A stretch of 64,000 bases of DNA from Trichoplax sp. H2 (taxonomy: Eukaryota). The position numbers were made by a program, and so were the translations under genes. The notes under the pieces were generated by a model. It saw nothing but the letters and a program-made list of their open reading frames with translations. It searched no databases and had not been told where the DNA came from. Within the stretch, counting starts at the first letter, position 1; the number at the start of each line of letters is the position of its first letter. Location of the stretch: the NCBI GenBank assembly GCA_003344405.1, contig NOWV01000152.1, forward strand, positions 62,001 through 126,000, given 5' to 3'. Shown here one piece after another: positions 13,101 to 55,100 of this stretch.

Positions 13101-16100
13101 ACATCAATATTTTGTTGTTGTTATTCATGCAGATGAAATATTGATTGAAATCACAATATATAGTATAGGATAAAACAAAAACTCATGTTCAATACCTAAT
13201 ATCTTACTATAAAGAGCAAAAAATTAACATATATCTCGATAAACATCAAAGCAGTAGATAGAAGTTGAATATTACTACTAAATAATTGCATCATAAATGT
13301 AAATTATACCTTAGAAATTAGAAATTAGCCCTTGTTATTGGCTGATATGGGAGGCAACATTAATAGAATGCTCAAAATATTACTGATATAGAATTAGGAC
13401 CACATTTAGTCATACCGATGATAATAGATGAGAATAATATCGATTAAAGGAAAACAATATTTAGAACCATCTAATAATTACTCACTGTACAACTGAATGA
13501 TAATACGAAAAACAATAGACAGTACCATTTTTAAGCAAGCAATATTAAAATGGATAATTTTAGACACATCGTAATTCTGACACCATCTTCGGACTAGCCA
13601 ATAATTTTAATATCGTAAATTGCTACTTTGTTTCGAGGTATGATTAAAATCTACAGTATATAATGATCAATAATTAAATTACTCATCATTTGTCTTTCAA
13701 TAGCGATATCTTCATTTTAGAAGTTAGATGATTTAAAGTAAACAAATTTTCTCATCAATTTGATGCCGACCTTACCTTATAATTACAAAATTATTCACCT
13801 ATTGCACCAATACTTGATATTAGTTTTGATTTGGTTCATATTTTTAGTTACGGTTGCGATTAACTAACATGAAACTCTGAATAGGCGTACTCTACAAGTG
13901 GACATTAACGATAATACCTTAATAAAATAAAATTTCAACAAGAATACTCCGTTGTAATCATATTGAGCAAATTCCTTATAATGTACAATACTAATGATTA
14001 TGGAAACAAATCCACGGGGTCTTCAATTATTTGAAGTTTATCGTTCTCCAAGTTAAGCATACTACAAGTCATGAATAGCAAATTTTTTAAATTTTGAATG
14101 CTAATATAATATTGGCTATTAGCTCATTTTCAATTATAGCAGACACACCCTAGGGATAAACTACATAAACATGCCTTAGAGATTAGTATACAGTACAATA
14201 AAATTATAATTGAGAGGTAGGCAACTGCTCGCAGGTATTGTGTTTCTAGCTTGAAATTAACTAGATGTTATGCAGCTTAATGAATTATTATAGGAAATTG
14301 TCTGAAGAATTTTTATTACTGCATATGGTCTTCTTTTTATAATAAGTTTTTGTAAAATGAAGGACATAAATAATTTTAGAGAGAAAGGATCAGATACAAT
14401 AACCCACATAACTAAGTACGATATGTCTATTTTATATCTACTTGCTGATTATAGGAATAATGATGCCGATAATGAAGATATTGAATTTCCTCCAGGTAAT
14501 ATCGGTAGAATATGGTTCTCATGGGAATATCAACCTTCAGATGAGCGATTAACAGTAGATTCTATCAAAATTCGCAATTTGCAAAATCGTCCTGGTGGAG
14601 GTGTCAGAAATCCACTAGTTAAAGTGTGTGCATTGCCATTTGAGCGGCAAACTAATCAAACTGTAGTCAAAAAGAAGTCCAATAATCCGCGATACGATGA
14701 ATCATTTCATTTTCAGGTGCCCATAAATGATATCTTCATTAATCTAGGCTAATTAGCTACGCTAGTCATGCTTATAGTTTTTATCAATTAAAAAAATTAA
14801 TGAATACTCTACATAATCTTGAGCTAAAGGGCTAAAAATTTATTATATACCGCTTATTTCTCCGACTTCGATTCTATCACTTATCATATACAATTCTTTA
14901 CTTTAGATTTCTCAGACTGAATTTCAACGTAGTAGGCTTCGTTTGTCTATATTTGATAACGAAGGAAGGCGCCAATACCCAATCGGCCATATTACTTGTC
15001 CGTTATTAGATTTAGATACATCAAGTAAGAAAACCGTCTGGAAAGATATCGAAAAAGGACTTGAGGTACCTATTTATTGGAAGTTCTTATTACTGCATCT
15101 GATTTATGTGTAAACTTAGCTTGCAATATTAACAGTTGCTGTATAATACAGAATAAAATTTTCGACATTTCTTGTAGCATCAAAACAACTCTAATCATTA
15201 TATTTATTTGGATTTGATTTCTTAAAATAGACATCGTACCAATTAGGAGCTATCACTTTTGCTTTGCAATTTATACCGCCTGATCGAGTGACTGTTACCA
15301 TACTGAGTGCTAAGGACTTACCAGCTCATGAAAAGTTATCTCATCAATGTAAGATTGAAATCATTGAAAGCTAAAATTACTCGTAGGGTTCAAGATAGTA
15401 CTAATAAACCATTAGACATGTAACTACTGTAGTGTTCAATAAATGTTGCTAACGAGTTTCCAAAATGACCAAAATCGTATCAAGCTCACTAAACTATCAG
15501 AAATGATCACTTGTCAAGATATTGATCATCTATCTGTTAAGCAACAGCTGCGATGTAGAATTGCTGTACACGTATTGCACATTAATGCGCATAATGTTCT
15601 TAGTTTCGATTTCTACTAGTGGCTCTTAGTTTATATTATTCGTTATTGTGATTTTATTTTCTAAATGTCCTTCCTTCATGCATGCTTTGATAAGGGAAAA
15701 ATTTAAAGAATCTCTAAACATCAATTATAATTATTAGTTGGCAATTTTATTTCTATCGTGAATATGGCTTAGCAAATCGAATTAATGATGGTATATGTAC
15801 GAATGCTCGTATCTATAGGTTTCTTGGTTAAAGCTACCTTAAGATATAATCAGAAGCCAATTAAAACTAAGAAAACGAACATTGTTAAGAAAACTGTAGA
15901 TCCTACCTTTGACGAATCGTTCCAATTTAAAGTATCAAAAGAGCATATTGAATCTACTGCAAATATTGTCATTGAAGTTCTATGCCGCTCTTCACATTCG
16001 TTCAAAGCTGATCGTAATGTTGGTCAAGTAATAATCGGTGGTAAAGATGTTGTTCGCGGACAAGCTTTGGATCATTGGCAAGAAATTATCAGTTCCCCTC

Positions 16101-16141
16101 AACAAAGCGCCCAAAAGACTTATTCATTGAGTCCTCCCTAA
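10123..16141 (+). CDS. SYT15: Synaptotagmin-15-like protein (N-terminal TM, linker, tandem C2A/C2B); start-codon exon not resolved
   Basis: Exons 10123-10588, 14455-14716, 14907-15065, 15231-15348, 15819-16141(TAA). All junctions are GT-AG and the phases (2,0,0,1) join in frame. TM segment IGIAVTIAVLSGIVVVLVFYLII. C2A 'GRIWFSWEYQPSDERLTV...NPLVKVCALPFERQTNQTVVKKKSNNPRYDESFHFQ' resembles SYT15 (GRLWFSVEY...ERL). C2B 'KTKKTNIVKKTVDPTFDESFQF...GQALDHWQEI'. The subfamily call is from recalled similarity, not a search. Confidence 0.85.
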
Positions 16142-17161: not shown

Positions 17162-19018
17162 TTACTGTAAAAACAGAAAAAACAACAGTTAGTATTGAAA
17201 TAGATTGCTATTGTCAAGATTAAATTACCTAGTAATCTATTGGGTATCAAGGTGCATAGCTACTAAGTCATGAATTAAGTTATAGAGTCTAAGTACGCCT
17301 ATCCATTATTCAATTTTAGGATATATTGTTACCATAGCTAACACATACTGTATACAGTATACGTTCAGGACATTTAAGCTAATACTGCAATCTCTACCCT
17401 ATCTGTGGTACAGTAATAGCTACAGTTAGTATTAATGTTCTGAACATACCTTCTTCTTGCCAGCACCAACTTTAGCTTTGGCAGTACCACGTACTTTCTT
17501 TTGTCTGTTCTTTCTCTCCTTACGTTGTTTCCTAGAAGCCCTTTTCCTCTCCAAGAAACCCAACTGATCAAATAAGAATAAATTTTACATTAATATCCTT
17601 GATGTTATAATTCAATTTACTTCAAGGTCTATCAACGCTATATTTGTGATAACTCAATTCCATCAATTGAAAAATTTAAATCTTAATTCAAGTTTTGTAG
17701 CTCGATCAATAATATTGTAACAGCAACTAATTTTTACGATCACGTAATCAGTATTGACTGACAACTTACCCGAACCAAACGATGCTTGGGCTCAAATTTT
17801 TTAAGATAATCTAAATTATCGTAGATAACGGCGAAACCAGTGCTTTTACCACCACCAAATATTGTCTTGAATCCAAAGCAGATTATATGATCTGCAGCAC
17901 ATTTGTACATTTGAGCTAATCTTTCTTTAACGACAGTCTTTTTTACGGTAGCTTTACCAGGATGGAGGACATCTACGACCTAAATAGTTATTAGGCGAAA
18001 TTTAATTTCATAGTATCGTCCAATACAAAACATATCGAAAATCCTGCTATAGAGTAGCAATAAAACTGGTAGATCAGTATGAGCACTAAAGGATAACCAT
18101 AACTCAAAAATGTGCAGGATAATCACCCTAATATGGCCGACCCCGCCAACACTGGTACTGGCTAGGACCGTTATTGTAGTTACCAGAGTTGCAAATTACA
18201 ATACTTTCATACTGAACTGCCCCTGAACTAAATGCATTATCCAATCTAGTTTAGTTCAGAAATAGCCTTCAAAAAAAGCTTTCGTAGGAGATACTATATC
18301 ATTAAGATGTTATGTAACTAAACTGCAAATTACTGATATGACTGCAAGGTAAATAGAATACTAACTATAGGATGAGTTTACAGGAATCCATCAATGCCAT
18401 CTTCTCTCAGCTAAAATGGAATCGCCTCTGCAAACTGCTCTTATACCCACTGATTAATAGTAGTTACTCACTATGGATATTTTCTATTACTGCTGTACTC
18501 TATTCTGTATTTAAGAAATGATGTAGTGTACCAATCACAATTTAACGTTTACACTATAACAGAGGCAGAGAACACTTACCATTTGCTTGCGATTCAACAA
18601 GCGGTTGGTCATAAACTTGCGGGTTCGAATTGTGATAGCACCTTCGCTCTACATCATGATAATAGTAAGATAACATAAGTGCAATTTCAAGATCGAAAAT
18701 GACTACAACATCAATAAAGCCTATTTCGACATAATTAGGATCATTTGAAGCAATCTGTATTGCAATTCATGTTGACTAGCAAGCAATCTCTCAAGCCATG
18801 ATTACTACAACATGACTATGACTTAGGATGTGTAAGTTGAAAATCGATACAATGAATATTATCGTTCATCACACTATTCAATCTTGAATTAAATAATAAA
18901 AAATTCAAACCGAACGAAACAATAAGTTTTTTTCTTGAAGTTAACATCAAATGAAGGCTAACTAGTGCAGGATTAATTGGATATTGGATGGATTCGTATA
19001 CGATCGGCTACTCACCAT
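17162..19018 (-). CDS. RPS24: 40S ribosomal protein S24 (eS24), 132 aa
   Basis: Exons 19018-19016 (ATG only), 18648-18580, 17979-17770, 17563-17450, 17164-17162 (TAA only), all GT-AG phase 0. Protein [36 protein letters not shown]...[38 protein letters not shown]...[29 protein letters not shown] is unmistakable eS24. Confidence 0.98.
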
Positions 19019-20752: not shown

Positions 20753-21950
20753 TTACCTTCTTTGAGTGCGTTTATCGTAGCGCCTTAAAACAGAATTAAT
20801 GACCTCTGCAGTGTTCTTTGAGCTGGCGTCAGTAGTCATCTCTTTCTCCTTACTTTGTTGCTAAAAAAGTATCAATGATCAATCGTTTCAATTTACCTGA
20901 GATACATACACATGAGTGGTTTTCAAGCACACGCACTACAACTAACAATTTTTTAATCTTGAATAAATACATTACAGTTCAATGAAACAAACTTACAGCT
21001 GCAACTTGGTTCGTACATGCCATGAATGCTGTAATTTCCTTTCCACAAGCACTATCTTGAAACTCATTCTCCTTCCAACACGTCATTAACGCAGCCATTT
21101 CATTCAGGCACGTAGCATCTTTACAACATACAGATAGCATTGTTAAAGCAGAATTTATGTACGAAATGCCCTTCATAAAATATGAATTTACAATCAAGTA
21201 TTATTAAATAACAGCAACTAGCGCGAATTCAACGTTGTACAGTTATTTGCAGCTTTCAATTTTAAGCACTTTATGTCCATTTTTAAATGAAAGATTTTCT
21301 ATTTTATCAAAAGCATCGATGGCTTTCCTGTTTATTCTGGTGGTTACAGAGGATACCTCAATTTGACTAGAGCTATGTCGGTACTTTAATAGCTGAGATA
21401 AAAGGGCTGTCAAAATGATTTAGGCGTTTCTGATGGTACAGTATACTCGTCTAGGACATAAATTATCGGATCGACGAGGTGGTCCAATTTATGCTGTAAC
21501 TTATTTTGAATATTCCGACTTTGAGATAGTATAATAGGCAAAACTTGAACCTAGACAACACTTGTAATTAATGTCATCATTACGAGTGTAGACAAGTACA
21601 ACTGTCAGCAGACGATACAAAGTCTATCATACTTTAATTTGCACTCGGATCAATTGCAGTGAAATAGAACTGATCCTTGCATTGTAGACAGTATGCAGCA
21701 GCAATATTAATGAACGAGCTTCTGCAACAAGCAACGGAATCCCCCAACGGTATAACAGTACTGTACTATACAAGATATAAAGTCTTCAAGATTTACATCA
21801 CCCATGAATAAAGCGAAGTTTGATCATACATATCTAATGTTACTCACTGCCAACATTACTGCCAGTATTGGAAATGTAAGGCCTCAATTTCATTTCTTTG
21901 ATGAGACCTTTAACTCTTTTCTTGCACAATGCGCGTGTAACTTGCACCAT
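20753..21950 (-). CDS. CHCHD1: CHCHD1-like / mitochondrial ribosomal protein mS37 (twin CX9C), 110 aa
   Basis: Exons 21950-21848, 21118-20997, 20860-20753(TAA), GT-AG, phases 1 and 0. MVQVTRALCKKRVKGLIKEMKLRPYISN...ATCLNEMAALMTCWKENEFQDSACGKEITAFMAC shows the CX9C-X10-CX9C motif with the CHCHD1-typical 'C..EM..LM.CWK.N.F.D..C.KEI..F..C'. Confidence 0.9.
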
Positions 21951-23958: not shown

Positions 23959-25383
23959 ATGGAGAAACATGAAGAGGATGCTATTAAGGAATGTTGGTCC
24001 GAACTTGTTAAGTCCATGCCGGTAGACCATATGAAAAATAAGCTATTTTCGAAGCGTATATTAGAGATATCTGATCTTGAAGCTATTGACGCTATGAATA
24101 CTATTAATAAAAAAAACCAAGAAATTCTAAAATTGGTAACGCGATCACAATCTCCTGAAACCTATAATATTTTCATTACTGCTTTGAGGGAAATCCCAAC
24201 TAGAAATAATATCTTAGCGGACATGGTTGAAAAATGTAATAAAAAGAGCGTATCTTATAACTCAAGCAGCAATACTGCGTCTGCCAATATAAATGCAGAC
24301 CAAACAGGTAAGCTTAATCGTAGGTTTAATATTAGTTGTTGGAAAAAATAAAACAATTTCACTACGGTATGCGATAAATCCGTTGCTATCTATCAATCTA
24401 TTACTAATTATATATTTTTAAGGACTAATTGTGATAGCAGAAATCATAAAATCAATTACTGCAAATAAAGATAGTATTCGTTAATCAGATAACAAGATTA
24501 CATCATGTTTGTCTAATGTTTAATATTAATATTGTAAATGATGAAACCAAGTTAGTCATAAATCTCATAGAATATCAGTAATGATTTCGCTATTACCGCA
24601 TACTTCAATCTTGATAGCGCTCACTAGTTCGAGCAATCAGATAAAATTTAAACCATATTGATGTTACATGATTTTATTTATCGGTTGTTTAACATTGTTT
24701 ATTTAAACTGATATTACAGACTCTGTTGGAGTTGACAAATCCTCTGCTTGCGGTGAGAAATGGGACGTCTTTTTGAGTTATTCGTGGAATAATAAAGACG
24801 AAGTAAAGAAAATTAAGAGTTACTTGGAACAGCAAAAGTGGAAAGTTTGGATAGATGATAATCGTGTTGCAGGTGGTCAGGACTTGGATTCAGTTCTTTC
24901 AAATGGAATTGAGGCATGCAAGGTAAAATCATGAAGAACGTCGACAACCAGTACTCGCTACTACATCGTAGGCTATTTTTCAGCGACAATATTACCTCTG
25001 AATAGGCTCTGATTCTGTAACTAATTGCTGATCCAATAAGTTGATGCACAGTTTTAAATCACTACTTACTTTTTGCTTTTGATTAACTTCGATCTTCTAA
25101 TTCTGGCTAGGTGTTCGTTCCGTGCTTAAATAGATCGTATGCTAATTCCGATAACTGTTACAGTGAATTGTCACATGCTAAAGACCTCAAAAAGTTTATT
25201 ATACCAATCGTTCTTGGTGATGTGGATCCTAAAAACGGTGGTCTTAAAGGCAAAAATGGTGACCTAAATTTTAAAATCACTGGCCTTACGTATATTAAGA
25301 TAAAAGACTTTGAAGATAAAGCAACGACGAATATAAAACTAAATGATTTAAATAAGGCAGTACAAGAGCGATTAATAGGATAA
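23959..25383 (+). CDS. CARD (death-fold) + TIR (TIR_2-like) domain protein, about 274 aa
   Basis: Exons 23959-24307, 24720-24922, 25111-25383(TAA), GT-AG, phases 1 and 0. The N-terminal ~90 aa fit the CARD helical pattern (ELVKSM...KLFSKRILE...KKNQEILKLV...YNIFITAL...LADMVE). The C-terminal TIR reads WDVFLSYSWNNKDEV...WKVWIDD...GGQDL...GIEACKVFVPCLNRSYANSDNCYSELSHAKDLKKFIIPIVL. Confidence 0.88.
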
Positions 25384-28300
25384 TTTATTCATACCATGAA
25401 GAAGCATCCAGCGTCAACATGCCATACAAGTAAATATTATTTACTTCCTTTAATACACTGCAGTCAATGTACGTATAATTTAGTTGTGGAATAGCCGAAA
25501 GCTACCAGAACCATTGAAAGCTAGACTGCATGAAATACATATGCTTTTCGATTTACTGTACTTGTTAAGATAAGTAAAATTTTAAGTGCGATAAAGGATT
25601 CTTCGATCTATAGTGATTATGGCATTTACGATATATTATTATTAATCGCGCAGTTTACCAATAATTATAATGTAGGGTACTCTCGATACTAAAAAAATTT
25701 GCTACAACATTTTATGGTTAGATTAGTTATGTAACATACTACATTTAGTTGAATAGATGCAACTCCGATATGCATTTCGTACTCAGCCGTACATAAGCAT
25801 CATTCTGTTCGGACCTTTGCAATAAAAGGCTTTACGATGCAATTGCAGCGAAATCATGATATTATACAAGATTATAATATTATGGCGTATCGATTTTTAC
25901 GTTTATCTGTTAATTTTAAATTCTGTAAGCAACATTTAGCTTTCTGTTGAAAGACCTTGTGTAAGTATAAACCAGTTTTATGCTAAAGTAATACCTGAGT
26001 CATAACGTCATTACTCCATAGATTCCTACAGTTGCTTAGCTATTTACTGATTTTGATGTGATATAATTTATGTTAGGACAATTACAATAGTTAGGTTGAA
26101 ATGGTAAAAATGAGCATTTATTACCTTTAGCGTGTAGATATGCGATTTTTTTTTATCCTTATATCCGGTATTTGTGATATGAATAAATCGATCTTCTTAA
26201 TTGCCGTTTCAATTCTTAACTACATCATAGAATGACAATGTAAGATATGCTATGTCGATCCACTGTTCTAGAATCTATCCATTACTTTGTTAGTACAGTA
26301 TATACTTGTATAATAGGAATTTGTGGTCGTTTTCCGATAGACAAGGATAGATAAAGCATTACAGAAAAGCAGATATTTTGCCAGCATTCCTCTGATTGGG
26401 ATGCCTTATGCGTGTATACATTTTATCAACTTCGAATAGTAATAGGAGCTGTTTTAAGAGACAGTTCTGAACAATTGAGATCACTAATGTTCTAGAGTCA
26501 TTATTTTAAAAATGTTCTGCTTCTTAAGTCCAATCAAAGATACAGTTATAGTATTTTTTAAAGTATTAATGGCGTATCTTGCAATAGAAATTTAAAAGCA
26601 TACATGATAATAGTCTCGAAGGATTAAGCAACAACTTCTATCAATCAATATCTATGATCTAGTTTCAAAATCTATGGCCTTTGGCATATAATCCATCTTT
26701 CCATATCATAGCTTCAATTATTAAGCGCGTACATTAAGCCTTTGCTTAAATCTATCCAAATCTTGTATTTTGTGATGTAAATGATAGACCGTTATACTAT
26801 CTAGAATACTTCGATAAATTAGTCGATTCCATGTGATAGCAATTGTAACTGCATGATGTTTAATTATAGTCTAGTAAAATCGGTTTTAGCTTTTATTATT
26901 AAATAGTGATAAGATAGCATGAAGACACCGATGACTTTATAGTTTATTACAAAAATTCTATAGGATTTCCACTGCATATATGGCTTTTGATTTTTAAGGT
27001 TCCATAGCTTCTATTGATGGCCAGTATTACCATTGATTTTATAGTATTGTCCTAAGCCGTCTATGATTTTTATCAAGATATCAATCTTATGTCATTAGAA
27101 ATGAAAAGGCTAAAAATATTTTCGCTAGAGCTTAATTAAATTAGCTTATAGCTTCCAATCTTGGATGATGGTGATATACTGTAATATTAAATCGTCCACG
27201 ATTTCCTAAAATCAAGATCATATGAATTGAAAATTTCAACTTTACAGTGCGTAGATTGATACCGGATGCAGCCAGACTATATATAATCTCTGTTATGATG
27301 TAACGTTCTTAATATATTACTAATAGCAAGCCTAGTTTGCCTTCAACCTCTACTGTAATTTTTAATACAGATAGCTAGGTACAGACATTTTAACTATCAA
27401 GGAAATCATTGGTAACAATTAGTAGGTATTATGACCTGAAATTGAAGTAATAGTGACCTATATGATTTTATGTGATAGTATTACAATATCGATTATGAAT
27501 TTAGAATGACGGACCGATAATAGATAGATGCACCGGAATAATTTTAAGCCTGTAAAGCCTTAGATCGTTGATACTTTATTGAAATTTAGAACTAGCGTGA
27601 ATTCGTTCCTACCGGCAGAGCTTTCACACATGATCTAAGATGGTATATAGTGATTACCTTATTCACGTTACTTAATTTAAAGAAACTTTACGATAATTTC
27701 TTTGTGTTTAGAGAGAGGGAGATAGCTACCGTACCAACTCTTATAAATACTGTAAATTTAAAATATTTGCCTAAAATTATTGCAAGACTAACCCAATACT
27801 TTTACTAAAGATGATTGGTTCTAGATTAGATTTATAGTATATGAATATTTCAATCATTTTTCACATAAATATAAATACCCATACAATCTGGCAATGTTTA
27901 TATTCCAAATCATTTCGTAGCATGTCATCTTACGGACATTAGAAAGCTGGCGACTTGTGGCTAAAGTTTTATAAATCATGATGTCTCCGAGATACTGTCA
28001 TAGACAATGGAAATTTAACACTGATGCTAAATAAAAGCTTTATTTACTCCAAGCCTTATTGAAAAATTAAATGAATTTATGGTTATGTTAAATTACTTCA
28101 GATATTTCAGATCATTGTTATAGTAGATTACATTAGTGTTACGAGCTAAACAAAAAAACTAATCAAGCCTTCAGTTCCTATATCGCATAATAAATTGTCA
28201 CATATTTTACGGAGACTTTGTTAATAGACATTTTGAAATCTATAAGCTAAATTTTTTCCCCTGGTCTAATGCCTTTACCTAATGTATCGTTATTCGCCTA

Positions 28301-30587: not shown

Positions 30588-31424
30588 TTATGCTAAGTTA
30601 GTATCCTCCATTTCACTACTTGATGGGCATGGAGAAGTAGTGATAAAGAAGGCTATCTCATATGCGCTGCTAGGCTCTGCAAACTTCTCCTTAAATTCGT
30701 CTGCAATCCAGGAGACTTGGTATTTAAATTCGACTGTGGTCCTCGGGCTACTGATGGTCAAATTTTTAATTTCTTCTTTTGAGCATCCTCGAAAGTCACA
30801 GGTTTCATAAGTTCTAGTCTCTGGCTTACCAGGTGTAAGTTCTAACTGATTAACCTCTAGGATTGGAGGTGGCACGATCTTGGTTACAGTTCTTGGACTG
30901 CAGTTACTTTTTGTCTGTGCTTCTCTCTTGTGTCGGATGTGCTCTTCTGCAGCGATTTTGGACCGGTGATTTTCTGCAATGAATTTATTGTCAGAATCTC
31001 CAAGGCTGTTTTTTTGAAGGGGTTGCTGTGATGGCCGACCGCTGGCTATTGGCACTGTAACCATAATAGCAATGGTAACATAGATGAATAAGAATGCACT
31101 GGTTGAAGTTTGGTCAATCTAAATTTTAGGATCAAAATAATATATTTTGTAAAACATTAATAATTAATTAATATAATCAACCTGTAAATTGAATAAAAGA
31201 AAGAGCAATCTTTGACTGTTAATGCAAATAATTTCTGCTTCCAATTACTATTATTTATGCGTCAGAGAGTTACAGCGAACAATAACCCTATTTTCGCTAA
31301 TGAATATGCTGCGTATTAGTTATCTACGGTAATCGATAATTAAATAGGACTAGAGGAAATCTACAGAGTAAACTAGGACATGGAATAACCTTATACAATT
31401 AACTAATAGATTACACCTTACCAT
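30588..31424 (-). CDS. Secreted Cys-rich prepro-protein, copy A (cystine-knot/IL-17-like paralog, 4 Cys), 177 aa
   Basis: ATG-only exon 31424-31422 (ATG|gtaagg) plus exon 31118-30588 (tttag|att, ends TAA). Signal peptide MIDQTSTSAFLFIYVTIAIMVTVPIASG, furin-type site RHKR, mature part with 'YETCDFRGCSKEEIK...EFKY...SPCP'. Clearly paralogous to 49741-50506. Confidence 0.8.
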
Positions 31425-34287: not shown

Positions 34288-37200
34288 TCAATGTATTCCC
34301 AGAAGACCCATTGTAAATAATGCTAGACCTATCGATAATAAAGTATATAAAGATAGTCCAGCTGCTCCGTTGACTTCAGTAGAATCCGTTGTTATTGCTG
34401 CAGTATTAGGTCCTTGCGTTGACGTTGCATAAGGCAATGTCGTAATGGAGGCTACATGAAATCAATACCAATCAGGTAAAAAGTTACTCTAAAGAATTTA
34501 GGCAGGGGTTAAAGAATTTTCAATTTATACTACCTAAATAATTCTATCCTGAAATTTAATTTTTACATCTCGCAGTGAGTTAAATTTTATGCTAGAGAAA
34601 ATTTATAGAATAACTAGAAGTGAGCTTTCCATTTGATAATTTACGTGGCGCATGACTATTGGTCAATTTATATTCTCGTTCGTGTTTCTAACAGGTAATA
34701 GAGATTAAAGTAAAACCTATTTTTAGGTTATTTGTGATTTATCTTCTGATGTTTACATAATTAATCTAGCTATACTTGAATGAAACAGAATTTAATTTGT
34801 CTGCTAGTTTAGGCTAAAGAAAGACTTTCACCTACGTTAGCTTTTCTAGAAGCTTAGAACTAATAGCAATAACCAATGCTAATAATTAATAGTCAAATGT
34901 CAAACAAGATATGAGAGTGAATATGGCAGAGTTGCTTTTTTAACATATATAATTTTCGATCATGTCATTTACACCGTCTTTAGTTATACTAAACATTATC
35001 GTCTTTTAAAGTCAATTCTGATGTAAGAAATAGCTAATTTGCATAAGTAATGCCAATAATACGAATATAATTTAATCTAAAGGTAAAAGGTGTAACATAA
35101 ATAGTTATTACAAGGGATTTTAAAATTTTACATTCCGGTATAGAAAAAATTTTTTGGTTTTCTTGACATTTAGTGCTATCATCATTTAAAACCTACGACA
35201 ACATTTTGGATAAAGACTGTTGTTCATTCAAGTATAGTAATAATTTAACGCTAAAAGGTTAATATGTTATAAACCATGCGATCATAATTATGGTTGTTCT
35301 ACAGCCATAAAATACAAACTAACACTACACTAATACAGCAACTAAAATCAATGGTCGTTGATATTCAAGTACCGTAAATTTTTTTAGAATCATTAATCTG
35401 TATGCACACTGGTATTCATTAGGAGTATAATAAGATTTGATCTAGGACTTTCAACTCAAGTGAACCGATAAGTTTAAAGAACGGTCTTAGATTTAAAGAT
35501 AAGAAATTGATTTACTTTCTCTAGTAACTGAATAATTTCACCTTTTAGCGTCGTTGCTTCGTAAAGCTTCACTAACTTTCATCAATAGCACATTAAAGCC
35601 AGAAAAGTAATTTGGAACTATTCCTTTTTAATCCTATCTTTATACTAGAAATTAGGAAATACTTTCGTGTACTGAAATCTTGATTGACTTTCTTATTGCA
35701 ACTCGGTAATAGCATACGGACACCACTTCTAGTCCATAGCTAAGTTTAAAATCATAGCTTTGCGCGTACTCCAGGAGGTAAGAGTAAACTGATGATTTAA
35801 TAGGGAATTCTAGTAGTATACGTTATGGATGTTACTATCTAAAGCTTAGAAATAACTTTTAAATACTATTTGGTGATAGAATTAATTTTTGTACTTAACA
35901 TACTTGTAAGTAGCTGAATATCGAGCGTTTTTTTAAAATCGATTGCCTTGCTCTGAGTTACTGAGTTGTGGAGATTCCTACGGTTATAGTTATATTCTAT
36001 CACAATATTATATTACAATCAGTCTGTAGCCTATTTACCTCTGTGGCATAGATAATTCAGCTTACTATCGCAACTCTCAGTCAGTAATTGCCAATGAGAG
36101 AGGAAAAGTGAGACGCATTTTTGAGCCCCTTTTGCTAATTCAGGTAATCGACTCCATCCTGGACTAGCTAGGTCAAATTTTTGTCCGTTGATCCATTTAT
36201 ATTCGTAGTACTTTCCAGAGTCGCCTTGAGTGGCTTGCATACCGATCCAAGCTAAGGAACCATAATTTTTATATAGCCGTTGTACTATTTGGGCCATGCT
36301 TGAGTCCAAGAGCAGTAATAATGTTCCATTCTCAGTAATACAAGAATTGTTGGCTTCATTCCATTCTAGATGGCTGCCATTAAATAGCTTAAAGCAATCG
36401 GTTCTAAGATTATCTTGGTGCATAAGCCAATTATCAGGGCAAGTATGGATTTGTGAACTAGCTATAAAGTGGCAACGGAGTATCATATTAGTTTTTATGC
36501 CAGCTGTAAATGAATCATCTTCAGTTGAGACGCTTACAATAAAATAATTAAACAGATTTAAATAAAGAAAATAATTTGCAAAGATTGATTTTAATGGGCT
36601 ACAATTTATATTGTCCAGCTATGTAACTGATGAACGCATTTTTGCATACATGATGCTAGCTGAGTTTTAAGAGCAGTGAAACTTAGAGTTCACAAAATGT
36701 TCTGTAGCCAGATTTACTCGCAATTGATATAGTTAACATAATGGAACTAAATTACAACGTGGCAAAAAATTGTAGTGTAGGAAAGTGTGGTAATAATGTT
36801 TATTACAAAATTTATGTCTTAATAATAGTTTTTGTTCGATGTATTATAAACTTCTTCTCTTCAATAATAGTATTTATAGACTAACTCAGCTCTTATTATT
36901 GCACAATAAGACAAAAAATTGTAGAGTAGGAAAAGTGTAGTCGCATTGCACATTTTAATAAATGAAATTCCTTTAAGAGATACGAAATAGGATATACGAT
37001 AATCAATAATGCATACTGATATAGCTATGGCAAGCCTAACATTAATTTCTATCAAAATAAAGTTATATTTCTCAGTAGTAACCTTTAGAGCTAGCAATAC
37101 GTTCCACTACTTTACAATGTGATAAATGCTATGATATTTGGTAGAGTCTGATGATGTATTTTATTATGGATGTAGTAACGATCAAATATAAATAGAACTG

Positions 37201-49740: not shown

Positions 49741-50506
49741 TTACGGGCATGAACAGTTATCTGGAACGAGTATGGATAATGTTACTTTTTTGTCCGTTGA
49801 CGGCCAGGTACTCTCTGGTGCATTATATTCAAATTCTATTCGCTTTTTTTTATTCGAGCTTTCACACGCTTTAATTTCTTTTGGCGAACAGGCTTTGTAA
49901 CTACACTTTGCATATAAATGTCCAAGTGGGCGGCCGTACCCGTAACTGGCTGATATCCATGGAGCCGGGAAGAATTTTCGTTCTTGCTCGACATGGCAAG
50001 GTGGATCGAATTCATTAATTTTTGGTGATCTTTTAACAAAGGCTGATCTATCGTTGGACTCTTTCGTGTTATTACCTTCATTCAAATCGGACGAATTAAA
50101 TTTATTCTCCTTGGCTACTGCTTTTGAATAGTCAGCCGGCCACGCACTACCGTATGGTAGAACGACTAAAATAATCACAATAAATGCAATTGCCGACAAT
50201 TTTGAAATGATCGAGTGTACCTAAGTTTTAAAGATAGAATAAATCCGTCAGTATAAAACTTATTGATTTAATTTATTTTTAAGCTAGCAATCAGTTCTAC
50301 TCGACGTAGACCAATAACTAAAAATTGTAATTGTTCTAATCACTTGAATATAACGTTAATAACTAACTTCTCATAAATGACTATTATACCGACAATTACA
50401 ATTATCATTGTATTTGATTAAGATTTAGTACCGCCGTATCCACTAGAACAAGTTAAATAATTAAACTATTAGAAAAAATGATTAATTTATTAGTGAGTCT
50501 TACCAT
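49741..50506 (-). CDS. Secreted 6-Cys prepro-protein, copy B (cystine-knot cytokine-like, IL-17-like motifs), 160 aa
   Basis: ATG-only exon 50506-50504 (ATG|gtaaga) plus exon 50220-49741 (cttag|gta, ends TAA). Signal peptide MVHSIISKLSAIAFIVIILVVLPYGSA, dibasic KR site, mature part PPC...PAPW...LYAKCSYKAC...KAC...ILVPDNCSCP. Confidence 0.85.
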
Positions 50507-52160: not shown

Positions 52161-55100
52161 TTAAAGTACATTCATTAGTAGCGTGGCTAAAATCACGCTC
52201 GTCGTAAGCAAGATACTCCGTGATGATCTAGTTGCCCCGTTAATCTCGGTAGACTCCAATGGAGCAGCGGTTGCTCTTACAATTTTTTTTGTGACACTTG
52301 ATGATGCTGATGTAGTTTCTACATGTGGGGCTTTAGAAGTAGTGGCTTCGGCTGATGCTAATGATAATTGATATTTCAAATAAATTGTAAGGTTAAGAAC
52401 TTAACATAAATTCTATTCGTAGTTAGAAATAAATAGATAATTACTACAGAACAGTCCATGCTGTACACGGCGTGAAATATTAGCTTTGAACAGATAGCAT
52501 TGAATGCATTATGTAATAGTTGTTAACTTACTTGAACATGAATGCGTATTGCATCGATATTGGCGAATTGATGGGCCTTGACATCCAGCTCCATCACCTT
52601 GTGGTGCGGGATTAGTACACGTTCTTGTCGAAATAGTGACACCACCGCCACATGGAGCACTACAAGAAGTGTTCTGCCACTTGGTCCATTGACCATCCGC
52701 GCCACCTAATTGCACGATTGAATTAAAGATTTTGTTCGAAAATTGAGAATGAGGTATAATAAAGTGATACGAGCATACAAGTGCTATACAGTCAATGATA
52801 GAGCAAATAATAAAGCACATTTTATTTTTACTTTTAAATACTAATTCTAACCTTTATGGCAGAGGTAATTCATCTTGCTGTCACACGTTTCACTCACTAA
52901 TTTCCAATGTGAAAGAAATAGTGAGACGCATTTTCCTGCTCCTTTTCCAATCGTTGCAACGGAGACCCACGACGGGCTACTCAATGTAAAATTTTGTCCA
53001 TTTAACCATTTGTAGTCATTATAACTTCCAGCCCCATTGCCCTGTGCTGCCTGCATGCCGATCCAAGCTAAAGCTGACATTTTGTGATAAATTTTTCTGA
53101 CCATGGCTGCTATATCTGGACTTACTATCTGTAGTAGGGTTCCGTTCGAGACTGCACAAGAGACTTTCGCATCGTTCCATTCAATGTGGCTGTTGTTAAA
53201 CAGGCGAAAGCATTCAGTTCTTTGTCCATTCTGGTGTAAAGTCCAACCGCTTGGACACGTATATCCATGGCTGATGCCTATAATTATTTGTTTATAAATT
53301 GAATATTTGTCAGTTGTCATTAGAGGAAAATTGGAGACGAGACACAAAAATCAGTCCATTCTATCATCCGCTTTTGACATTATAGTAATTTGAATTACTT
53401 TCAAAAAGAAGTACTTGCTCGAGTACGTTGTATATCGCATGAAAATAGCTAAGATTCCTTTATACAGTAGTTAGTCAAAGTCAACATCACTAAGAGCTTT
53501 TCGATCAAGTTCAATAGACGGACCGATGTTTTTCATACTATTGGACTTGATCCGAGTTTTTTTTGGATACTATTTCAATTTTAATAGTAATTTCTGTCGT
53601 TGACTATACCAGATTTGGATTGACAGTAGTAGTTAGCACAGCATACACTAGCCGTAAAGTATTACTCTAGTTTACGGCAATGTCTTACTGCATCTGGTAG
53701 ATGGCAGATTAATAGATGGAAAAAAGGCGCGGCTTTATCAAAGTTATCAAAGTTATTCCAATTCACAATAGTACAGTACTGTACTACTAGGATGGCTAAT
53801 TCAGTGAAACACGTCAATACGAAATAGGGCAATCCGATCCTTATTTCAAGTGTCAATATTCACAACGACTACAGTAATGGTAGAAGCACTCTCTTCTTTT
53901 AATAGCAATCCAGTAAGACTCACCTATTTGATTGATGAAGAGTACGGAAAAAAATGCCTGAATAAAAAAGGAAATAATGCAAGAGAATAGGATTAGTTTT
54001 AAAATCACGTGCAAACTTCTTCATTTTAAACTTGCGTAAAAAAGTACAATATACTATTCAACTATATTGTCCACTTTTACGCTAAACCGGTAGAATGCTA
54101 TAGTTAGTATGATAATACAATTAGAATGGATGCATTGTAGTACGATGATATTTTTAGGAACTAAGTCATTTATTATTGCAATTGATTGGAATAGCATCGA
54201 TCTGTATCCCGCTGCCAAGATGAATTTGTGGTACAGGATGTTGTAAAGTAAATAGAAGGGTCTGCAGTTATTTATAGAATTGTTGTATAATGGATTTACT
54301 GGATGCTATTCAATGCTCAAATAAATATAGTTATCCAAAATTGCTCATCATTGTTACCATGGCTATTTTATTTCACTCCAGTTTGAAAAATATAATGAAA
54401 AGTGAACTAATTTATCACGGTTTTCTATCCAAAGGGCACTATGCCAACATGTACTGAAAGTGAGAAAAAGCAATCGCTACCATCTTTGAGTGAAGTGAAA
54501 CTATTTTTATTGCCCACTTGGCTACCGCTCGATCCAAGTCATTTAATATTACCGTACAGTATCAAGATGATTGCATGACGTCAGATATCAGGAAGTTTTT
54601 AATGTTTAAATATGCGCCACATTTTACTACTCCAACTTCCGACTTGTAACATTCCAACAAATCTTTGTCACCGATAATACTATTGAAGTTAGCGAAGAAA
54701 AGATAATTTTAAAATTTTATTTCATTTTGGATAGGGTTGTTGGGTAGTGTTGATGAAAGTGGAATGTACTCTTGGTAGGCGCTATTTTGATGCAATGAAT
54801 TTCTGTCAGTAACATTATGGATGATACAGCACCATGATTTGTTGCATCTTGATAAACTACCATCAATCTCTTTTACACCATCATCGCCTAAGAAATGTAT
54901 TTTACAACAAGTAAAATAAAATTGACACAGTAGAAATAGGAGGTGGTCAACGGCTCCATCTATTGCGATTTTACCGCTTGAGTTGATGCTCACTTGTAGA
55001 CAATCGTCTGATATTGAGTGATTCAACAATCATTCTACAGTATAGAACCCTTGGACTCATTTTCATGTCAACCAATGACTGTAGAACTGCACAAAATACG

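Follow-up and report, generated by a model that had tools for sequence, protein, structure and literature searches.

A placozoan CARD-TIR gene with a catalytic-column glutamate and an asparagine in place of the WxxxE tryptophan: candidate NAD+ hydrolase or adaptor

Does a small placozoan protein that couples a CARD to a TIR domain cleave nicotinamide adenine dinucleotide (NAD+), or does it serve as a non-enzymatic adaptor in the manner of MyD88? The question is raised by TrispH2_008615, a gene at positions 23959-25383 (+) of a 64,000-nucleotide (nt) stretch of the Trichoplax sp. H2 genome (contig NOWV01000152.1; the whole stretch is hereafter the window), for which an earlier note, made from the sequence alone, had proposed a minimal CARD-TIR protein with an "intact catalytic glutamate". 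We found that the locus is a real, conserved gene for a CARD, a flexible linker and a TIR domain of the enzyme lineage. The glutamate (E203) stands in the catalytic column, and the aromatic residue of the WxxxE motif is replaced by asparagine (N199). The reading that we put forward is an enzymatic effector, a TIR NAD+ hydrolase recruited through its CARD, and we judge its chances to be evenly balanced.

Gene structure, domains and published record

The gene consists of three exons joined by two canonical GT-AG introns, as the earlier note had drawn it. Its parts, with the two codons on which the question of catalysis turns, are as follows.

23959-24307 (+): exon 1, which opens with the start codon and encodes the CARD (23959-24258, residues 1 to ~100) and the greater part of the Ser/Asn-rich linker
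24308-24719 (+): intron 1, 412 nt, GT...AG, phase 1, GC 0.267
24720-24922 (+): exon 2, matching TIR_2 with 42.1 bits over profile positions 1-51; donor AAG, then GTAAAA, phase 0
24923-25110 (+): intron 2, 188 nt, GT...AG, phase 0, GC 0.362
25111-25383 (+): exon 3, encoding the C-terminal half of the TIR domain, in which SDNCYSEL lies on helix C; ends with TAA (25381-25383), the stop codon
25153-25155 (+): AAC, codon for N199, in the column of the WxxxE Trp (AbTir W204)
25165-25167 (+): GAA, encoding E203, which aligns with the catalytic Glu of NAD+-cleaving TIRs (E208 in AbTir)

The start ATG at 23959 is the first ATG downstream of an in-frame stop. Exon 1 ends on the first base of codon D117, where the donor reads CAG before the junction and GTAAGC after it (phase 1), and the acceptor of intron 1 reads GATATTACAG up to the junction (ending in TTACAG) and ACT beyond it; the acceptor of intron 2 reads TTCTGGCTAG (ending in GGCTAG), followed by GTG. 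The joined exons form an 825-nt coding sequence whose translation is identical to GenBank RDD38987.1 (274 amino acids (aa); P0004 in our analysis), annotated as 'hypothetical protein TrispH2_008615 [Trichoplax sp. H2]'. A tblastn search of the window with the 274-aa protein matched the three exons and otherwise returned one chance match (E = 6.7).

Pfam matches were judged against cut-offs of 23.9 bits for CARD (PF00619), 28 bits for TIR_2 (PF13676) and 21.3 bits for TIR (PF01582). The whole protein scored above all three, with 73.9 bits for TIR_2 (residues 133-241), 42.4 bits for CARD (residues 7-78) and 35.6 bits for TIR PF01582; the further match at E ≤ 1 was a weak one to DUF7740. Taken exon by exon, exon 1 matched CARD with 37.3 bits, and exon 3 alone matched TIR_2 with 19.8 bits, under the cut-off, over profile positions 54-109. 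Because exons 2 and 3 thus cover consecutive halves of one TIR_2 profile, the splice between them is independently supported. A pseudogene or a mis-splice was ruled out by the intact frame, the canonical splice sites, the continuity of the TIR profile over intron 2 and an orthologue that is 97% identical; a bacterial contaminant was ruled out by the spliceosomal introns and by animal-type neighbours (C2, C-type lectin and TSP1 domains).

Three parts were recognised in the 274-residue protein: a CARD of Apaf-1 type (~1-100) and a TIR domain (~130-274), joined by a disordered linker, rich in Ser and Asn, of ~25-30 residues. The AlphaFold (AF2) model, built from the 32-sequence alignment A2, had a mean predicted local distance difference test score (pLDDT) of 81, compared with 36 for a single-sequence model. 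It predicts a six-helix CARD over residues 3-103 at pLDDT 83-96, with a broken first helix (3-11, 13-19, 22-31, 37-44, 49-62, 68-77, 85-103); helix 1 of CARDs is typically kinked or broken. The linker between the domains, which the earlier note had read as short and rich in Ser and Asn, is so composed and is predicted to be disordered (residues 103-127, pLDDT < 50), and residues 131-273 are modelled as an alternating strand-helix domain with the TIR fold.

The identity of the death-fold domain emerged from profile comparison. As a single query against solved structures, exon 1 gave only CED-3 (0.033), RAIDD (0.45) and caspase-9 (~1), and chance matches such as YscF were equally strong. The family profile A3 matched the Apaf-1 CARD at E = 3.4e-7 (profile 1-77 vs residues 1-76) and the CED-3 CARD at 2.6e-6, followed by CARD8, BCL10 and caspase-9 at 0.15 to ~2. 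By this profile, the CARD is closest to that of Apaf-1, so that the death-fold domain claimed in the earlier note can be named more closely. By protein-language features, residues 1-105 lay nearest to clusters of CARDs scoring 0.89-0.90, of which two are placozoan for the most part; these are taken as leads only. No CARD chain appeared in the listed Foldseek rows for the full-length model, which were dominated by the TIR domain.

The CARD-TIR architecture of this locus is already published. Additional file 1 Fig. S1 of Kamm, Schierwater and DeSalle 2019 (BMC Genomics 20:5; its article text is cited here in part) gives TrispH2_008615 as a 274-aa 'CARD TIR' protein, labelled 'MyD88-like', and lists TrispH2_011522 (290 aa) as a second CARD-TIR protein. 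In the cited text the protein figures as a possible adaptor, and catalytic residues are not taken up. The precomputed Pfam annotation of TrispH2_008615 in a public database likewise carries TIR, CARD and TIR_2, and the earlier remark that the architecture is easily missed does not stand. To the published description our analysis adds that 'MyD88-like' is an analogy, that the WxxxE aromatic is missing, that the CARD is Apaf-1-like and that a third paralogue exists. Apart from Kamm et al. 2019, literature searches on CARD-TIR wording returned no paper on the architecture, and the locus tags and accessions were absent from main texts. Neither Trichoplax, Placozoa nor CARD is mentioned in the main text of the screen of animal TIRs by Hurieva et al. 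(preprint, 10.64898/2026.04.20.719644; cited below from part of its text); the TeTIR preprint likewise names neither Trichoplax nor Placozoa and refers to CARD as general background only.

Lineage and active-site residues of the TIR domain

The model of the TIR domain was compared with solved structures by Foldseek, which returned 78 matches in the PDB at E ≤ 0.001; the rows listed were TIR domains or TIR-containing proteins. Isolated TIR-domain chains superposed with target-normalised TM-scores of mostly ~0.64-0.77 (~0.50 in three rows), and the matches included plant RPV1, RPS4, RUN1 and L7, the SARM1 TIR, AbTir and, at 0.74, the TIR of MyD88. Sequence searches were more discriminating. With the single sequence, the named TIR chains of lowest E-value in solved structures all came from NAD+-cleaving TIRs or from the TIR domains of plant immune receptors, namely Cat1 (1.6e-6), flax L6 (3.3e-5) and Roq1 (1e-3); RPP1, AbTIR and SARM1 matched more weakly, and an unrelated XisI chain was also present at E = 0.016. 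No TLR or MyD88 chain was found at E ≤ 1 in this search, SIGIRR (0.92) being the sole exception. The A2 profile ranked Cat1 first (4.6e-17), followed by a 'TIR domain protein' (7uxr, 7.9e-11), AbTir (1.8-2.6e-10), Roq1 (5e-10), the bacterial TIR protein 3h16 (6e-10), C. elegans TIR-1 (7e-10) and SARM1 (~1e-6). TLR chains (3e-6 to 2e-4) and oyster-type TIR-STING (3e-4) were weaker, and the MyD88 TIR chains, at E = 0.24 and 14.2 bits, ranked under at least 50 other TIR chains. Because sequence comparison, unlike fold comparison, separates the two kinds, the TIR domain is assigned on this basis to the enzyme-type (TIR_2) lineage. PADLOC and NCBIfam gave weak sub-threshold TIR matches only, such as ThsB and retron-TIR.

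The three motifs named in the earlier note were located as DVFLSYS (D132-S138), WID (W160-D162) and SDNCYSEL (S197-L204). SDNCYSEL aligned with SDWCWDEL of Cat1, SKWCLMEL of L6, STWCLEEL of Roq1 and DWTNYEL of AbTir, which places E203 in the column of AbTir E208, as had been claimed. This column is at least 90% conserved in alignment A2, and E203 lies inside a predicted helix (198-209, AF2). According to Hurieva et al., the catalytic Glu protrudes from helix C, and their structural criterion for it is a C-alpha within 3 Å of ThsB E85; lying in helix 198-209, E203 fits the description of a catalytic Glu on helix C. In the BB loop, G169 and L172 aligned with AbTir G174 and L177. On strand A, the counterpart of S136 of DVFLSYS was the Ser of 'FLSF' (L6, Roq1) or 'FISHA' (AbTir), a position that we take to be equivalent to SARM1 S567. 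A conserved Ser adjoining the Glu is reported, in the part of the preprint cited here (10.1101/2025.04.09.647920), as required for NADase activity.

Several observations weigh against an enzymatic TIR, and one comes from the same helix. N199 occupies the column of the WxxxE Trp, and no aromatic residue stands in this column in any of the three placozoan lines described below: one sequence has His and the others Asn. Manik et al. (preprint, 10.1101/2022.05.07.491051; cited from part of its text) report that this Trp stacks on a nicotinamide mimic, that L6 W131A and ROQ1 W82A lose NADase activity and SARM1 W638A is weakened, and that AbTir W204A has reduced activity, with the share of 2'cADPR (cADPR, cyclic ADP-ribose) falling from 93% to 24%. 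All cyclase TIRs in their account carry an aromatic amino acid in that column, and its conservation is weaker among TIRs that are inactive or form ADP-ribose (ADPR) only. Because the WxxxE aromatic is absent, an "intact" Glu does not equal an intact active site: the part of the earlier claim that put the Glu in the catalytic column stands, and its extension to the site as a whole does not.

Presence of the Glu is, moreover, expected. Hurieva et al. report that most animal TIRs outside the TLR and interleukin-receptor clades keep it, so that the Glu alone is weak evidence of activity. In their E. coli screen, a cyclic ADPR isomer was obtained from only 12 of 61 Glu-bearing animal TIRs, and TLR2, IL-1R9 and IL-1R10 have the Glu and gave no detected activity; an E. 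coli cyclic-ADPR assay would miss a pure ADPR-forming hydrolase unless NAD+ depletion were seen. On the structural side, Foldseek does not tell enzyme TIRs from adaptor TIRs, as the score of the MyD88 TIR indicates, and the model is less certain at residues 161-180, around the BB loop (pLDDT 69-78), and at 221-240 (58-72). The surroundings of the gene belong on the same side of the balance. A Pfam scan covered 91 of the 107 stop-to-stop open reading frames (ORFs) of ≥ 62 aa in the window, the other 16 overlapping this gene or scanned ORFs, and no other CARD, TIR, NB-ARC, NACHT, caspase or Death domain was found in the 91 scanned, a search in which short exons would be missed. Genomic adjacency of an effector and a STAND NTPase, as in bacterial systems, is accordingly not seen in the window; such adjacency is not expected in animals, and a lone gene is not unusual in an animal genome.

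To place N199 in a wider context, 421 TIR stretches from 175 related proteins were aligned and the two columns counted. Glu occupied the catalytic column in 395 of the 421. In the WxxxE Trp column, Tyr was commonest (196), ahead of Asn (145), Phe (20), His (12) and Trp (7); the pattern 'S.NC..E' occurred in 128 of the 421 stretches and its Tyr version in a further 185. Asn at the WxxxE Trp position is a recurrent, conserved state of this TIR clade and not the accident of one gene, so that the earlier observation that the usual Trp is Asn was right about N199 and needs widening beyond this gene. Many members of the nearest TIR clade are proteins with 2-7 tandem TIR stretches.

Placozoan relatives and genomic surroundings

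There are at least three CARD-TIR paralogue lines in Placozoa. The line of TrispH2_008615 includes the T. adhaerens orthologue TRIADDRAFT_62327 (B3SDH1), likewise described as 'MyD88-like' by Kamm et al. 2019, in which 266 of 274 residues are the same and SDNCYSEL is unaltered. The second line was recognised in an exhaustive search of representative sequences, which gave 5381 matches at E ≤ 1e-3, 467 at ≤ 1e-10 and 8 at ≤ 1e-30, the best 150 of which were examined. The strongest matches were long multi-TIR proteins. Three of the matches for which a source was named come from the annelid Dimorphilus, the clam Mya and the hydrozoan Hydractinia. The only full-length look-alike among the matches listed was TRIADDRAFT_59582 (P0034), with a CARD of 26-27 bits and TIR_2; it falls in one 90%-identity cluster with TrispH2_011522. 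The third line is represented by T. adhaerens TRIADDRAFT_62605 (P0185, 292 aa; CARD 47.5 bits, TIR_2 70.5 bits), which shares a 90%-identity cluster with TrispH2_011686 (P0094, 230 aa), a protein with no CARD in its model. Kamm et al. 2019 count two CARD-TIR proteins and draw TrispH2_011686 as TIR-only; because its clustered T. adhaerens counterpart has a CARD, the H2 gene model is probably truncated, with its CARD exon missed.

Compared to TrispH2_008615, the other lines are identical at 17-20 of 87-99 positions in the CARD and at 47-54 of 143-147 positions in the TIR domain, and across all three lines the CARDs share 17-23 identical residues of 75-99 compared. The catalytic-column Glu is present in all seven placozoan family members with a TIR, in all three lines. 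A FastTree phylogeny built on the best TIR stretches (172 distinct ones) groups the seven placozoan TIRs in one clade (Shimodaira-Hasegawa-like support 0.725), which lends modest support to one ancestral CARD-TIR fusion followed by duplication. A 154-aa record (P0050) matches exon 1 at 48 of 96 CARD positions and diverges right after the aligned 'DQ(T/S)', that is, at the end of exon 1; judged by this break, it looks like intron read-through in a more distant relative.

No CARD-bearing protein besides those named above came up among the matches listed. A CARD was found in only P0034 and P0050 of the 20 short matches that were scanned with Pfam among the best 150 of 5381, and CARD-TIR proteins may exist in other phyla. 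Word-indexed homologue searches retained 1 of 335 and 1 of 597 candidates, in each case the query itself, and a search with alignment A1 gave 19 proteins from 7208 candidates, in which precomputed Pfam annotation placed a CARD in the query only.

One difference between the H2 gene and its T. adhaerens orthologue lies at the 3' end. The T. adhaerens model is 287 aa long, with 13 additional C-terminal residues, and a near-identical peptide is encoded in another frame just past the TAA of the H2 gene (window 25381-25440, +); the 3' annotations differ between the species.

The window is AT-rich eukaryotic DNA, with a GC content of 0.28-0.38 per 2 kb, and contains no tRNAs and no Rfam families. The Pfam domains found in its ORFs were C2 (two), RPS24e, CHCH, Lectin_C (two) and TSP_1, distributed as follows together with two ORFs that match no Pfam family.

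14306-14752 (+): C2-domain exon (PF00168, 36.9 bits)
15773-16141 (+): C2-domain exon (PF00168, 47.1 bits)
17743-17979 (-): RPS24e exon (100.6 bits)
20982-21200 (-): CHCH exon (40.8 bits)
30588-31118 (-): ORF with a hydrophobic N-terminus, no Pfam family
36031-36618 (-): C-type lectin exon
49741-50220 (-): ORF with a hydrophobic N-terminus, no Pfam family
52509-52853 (-): TSP1-repeat exon, adjoining the second lectin exon
52847-53350 (-): C-type lectin exon

The two C2 exons, on the strand of the CARD-TIR gene and upstream of it, are unrelated to that gene and are probably parts of a single gene with C2 domains in tandem. The RPS24e and CHCH exons occupy a somewhat GC-richer stretch just upstream of the CARD-TIR gene. 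On the minus strand a unit is duplicated: the two lectin exons share 54% identity along 145 aa (E = 4e-64), and the two ORFs without a Pfam family, which lie ~3-5 kb downstream of the respective lectin exons, are 25% identical (E = 6e-9) and have a common Cys pattern.

Proposed mechanism, rival explanations and known systems

If the TIR domain is an enzyme, its CARD would bind, through CARD-CARD contact, to an oligomeric platform of CARDs, most plausibly the expanded Apaf-1-like NB-ARC proteins or the CARD-caspases reported from this genome by Kamm et al., who count 39 NB-ARC genes, about twelve Apaf-1 homologues with a CARD-NB-ARC-WD40 architecture, and two neighbouring CARD-caspases. Crowding on the platform would lead the TIR domains to self-associate and form composite active sites, in which E203 would cleave NAD+. 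Because the WxxxE aromatic is replaced by Asn, hydrolysis without cyclisation would be expected, that is, plain conversion of NAD+ to ADPR and nicotinamide, and the protein would be an NAD+-consuming death or alarm effector that emits no cyclic ADPR signal. If active, the TIR may be such a hydrolase or may form a product other than the known cyclic isomers. The logic would be that of a TIR effector tethered by an adaptor and acting in trans with a STAND ATPase. That Apaf-1-like proteins are the partners is an inference, as is the step that the earlier note had raised, from CARD signalling by NLRs or caspases to depletion of NAD+.

The main rival to this enzymatic reading is a non-catalytic adaptor, as the label 'MyD88-like' implies: the TIR would bind upstream TIR or SEFIR proteins, the CARD would recruit a CARD-caspase or another CARD protein, and the whole would be a scaffold without NAD+ chemistry. 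We regard this as possible but rather doubtful. It is the role proposed by Kamm et al. 2019 for both TrispH2_008615 and TrispH2_011522, the death-fold and TIR domains stand in the same order as in MyD88, the MyD88 TIR superposes well (target-normalised TM-score 0.74), and arthropod MyD88 clusters were among the nearest in the protein-language search (0.83, a lead only). The missing WxxxE aromatic is in keeping with catalysis that is weakened or absent, and no cyclic product was obtained from 49 of the 61 Glu-bearing animal TIRs of Hurieva et al. Against this, the TIR domain stands far nearer in sequence to TIRs that are enzymes than to that of MyD88 (profile E of 4.6e-17 vs 0.24), and the Glu, the adjoining Ser and the BB-loop Gly are kept over three diverged lines and are conserved in relatives too (Glu in 395 of 421). 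Since a scaffold needs none of these residues, their conservation counts against a pure scaffold. Kamm et al. 2019 moreover report no true TLR in the genome and IRAK-like kinases without Death domains, and a Myddosome-like chain would thus lack its obvious members.

Two further explanations seem to us improbable, the second somewhat more so than the first. The protein might be a regulator or decoy on apoptosome-like machinery, its Apaf-1-like CARD competing for CARD-caspases or capping CARD assemblies in the way of CARD-only inhibitors, with the TIR serving localisation or self-association. The small size of the protein and a CARD profile closest to the Apaf-1 CARD would suit such a role, as would the Atlas CARD clusters of ~105-122 aa with mostly placozoan known members (0.89, leads only), but it leaves unexplained why a full TIR with conserved catalytic-column residues persists in all three lines. 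Because the CARDs of the three lines are so strongly diverged (17-23 of 75-99), different partners also fit better than one shared decoy target. Alternatively, the TIR might be an enzyme with another chemistry or product, such as an uncatalogued signalling nucleotide, a 2',3'-cyclic nucleotide monophosphate (2',3'-cNMP) synthetase activity or a nuclease-type activity, the latter two as reported for some plant TIRs, and Asn-x-x-x-Glu would then be a distinct active-site variant. The recurrence and conservation of 'S.NC..E' (128 of 421, with Tyr in a further 185) point in this direction, Hurieva et al. stress that several TIR products went unmeasured in their screen, and one paper, to judge by its title, reports 2',3'-cAMP/cGMP synthetase activity of plant TIRs; no characterised TIR with Asn at the WxxxE Trp position came up, which speaks against it.

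The CARD-recruited hydrolase invites a broader and more speculative proposal, which we think unlikely: placozoan CARD-TIRs may be NAD+-consuming death effectors that are recruited directly, CARD-to-CARD, to the expanded Apaf-1-like apoptosome family, an in-trans animal counterpart of plant TIR-NLR resistosomes and of bacterial Death-like-TIR/STAND systems. Their variant Asn-x-x-x-Glu site would hydrolyse NAD+ or make an uncatalogued product, and the three diverged CARDs would address three platforms. Should the TIR be active, it would offer, in an animal of an early branch, a very compact and experimentally tractable case of a death-fold adaptor joined to a TIR enzyme, it would connect NAD+-based cell death with the realm of caspases and the apoptosome, and it would mean that the bacterial and plant logic of TIR activation by adaptor-induced proximity persisted in Metazoa beyond SARM1; the NxxxE variant, frequent in this clade, would in addition be informative on the role of the WxxxE aromatic. 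Should it be inactive, the protein would be one more lineage-specific adaptor, with the 'MyD88-like' label an analogy only. In either case, that label should not be read as orthology.

Compared to MyD88, the protein is alike in having an N-terminal death-fold domain followed by a C-terminal TIR, in being small with no other recognised domain, and in the TM-score of its TIR (0.74). It differs in that its death-fold domain is a CARD, with no match to Death (PF00531) at E ≤ 1 in Pfam, in the E of 0.24 between the MyD88 TIR and the family profile, in its conserved catalytic-column Glu, and in that the Death-domain IRAK partners are reported absent from Trichoplax (Kamm et al. 2019). MyD88 TIRs make up groups 23 and 32 of Toshchakov and Neuwald 2020, and the match of MyD88 chains to our family profile (E = 0.24, 14.2 bits) does not place this TIR among them. 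A MyD88 orthologue is thus ruled out by the lack of a Death domain together with this E-value, which upholds the separation from MyD88 drawn in the earlier note. An orthologue of SARM1 or TIR-1, which have ARM repeats and tandem SAM domains ahead of the TIR, is likewise ruled out, as no ARM or SAM match was found in Pfam; Kamm et al. 2019 describe a separate 'Sarm1-like' gene, TrispH2_003058.

The NAD+-cleaving TIRs (SARM1/TIR-1, the plant TNL TIRs L6, Roq1 and RPP1, bacterial AbTir and CRISPR-associated Cat1) are the best sequence matches among solved structures. The helix C Glu, the strand-A Ser and the BB-loop Gly align with theirs, and an activation logic of induced proximity may be shared by analogy; the differences are the Asn here for the WxxxE Trp and the tether, which is a CARD and not a SAM, NB-ARC-LRR or CARF. 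Bacteria offer a further parallel in TIR effectors with Death-like or effector-associated adaptor domains, paired with STAND NTPases that have that adaptor too (Kaur et al. 2020, 2021), among which a Death-like bDLD3-TIR is encoded beside bDLD3-STAND NTPases (Kaur et al. 2021, from the part of the paper cited here). The nearest whole-protein neighbours by protein-language features were bacterial EAD7-TIR clusters (~217 aa, 0.84), which we treat as a lead only. Unlike in these systems, the Trichoplax gene has no operon-like adjacency, with no NB-ARC or NACHT found in the 91 ORFs scanned in the 64-kb window; the likeness lies in the combination of a two-domain adaptor with a TIR, which might, by analogy, be recruited in trans to a STAND ATPase.

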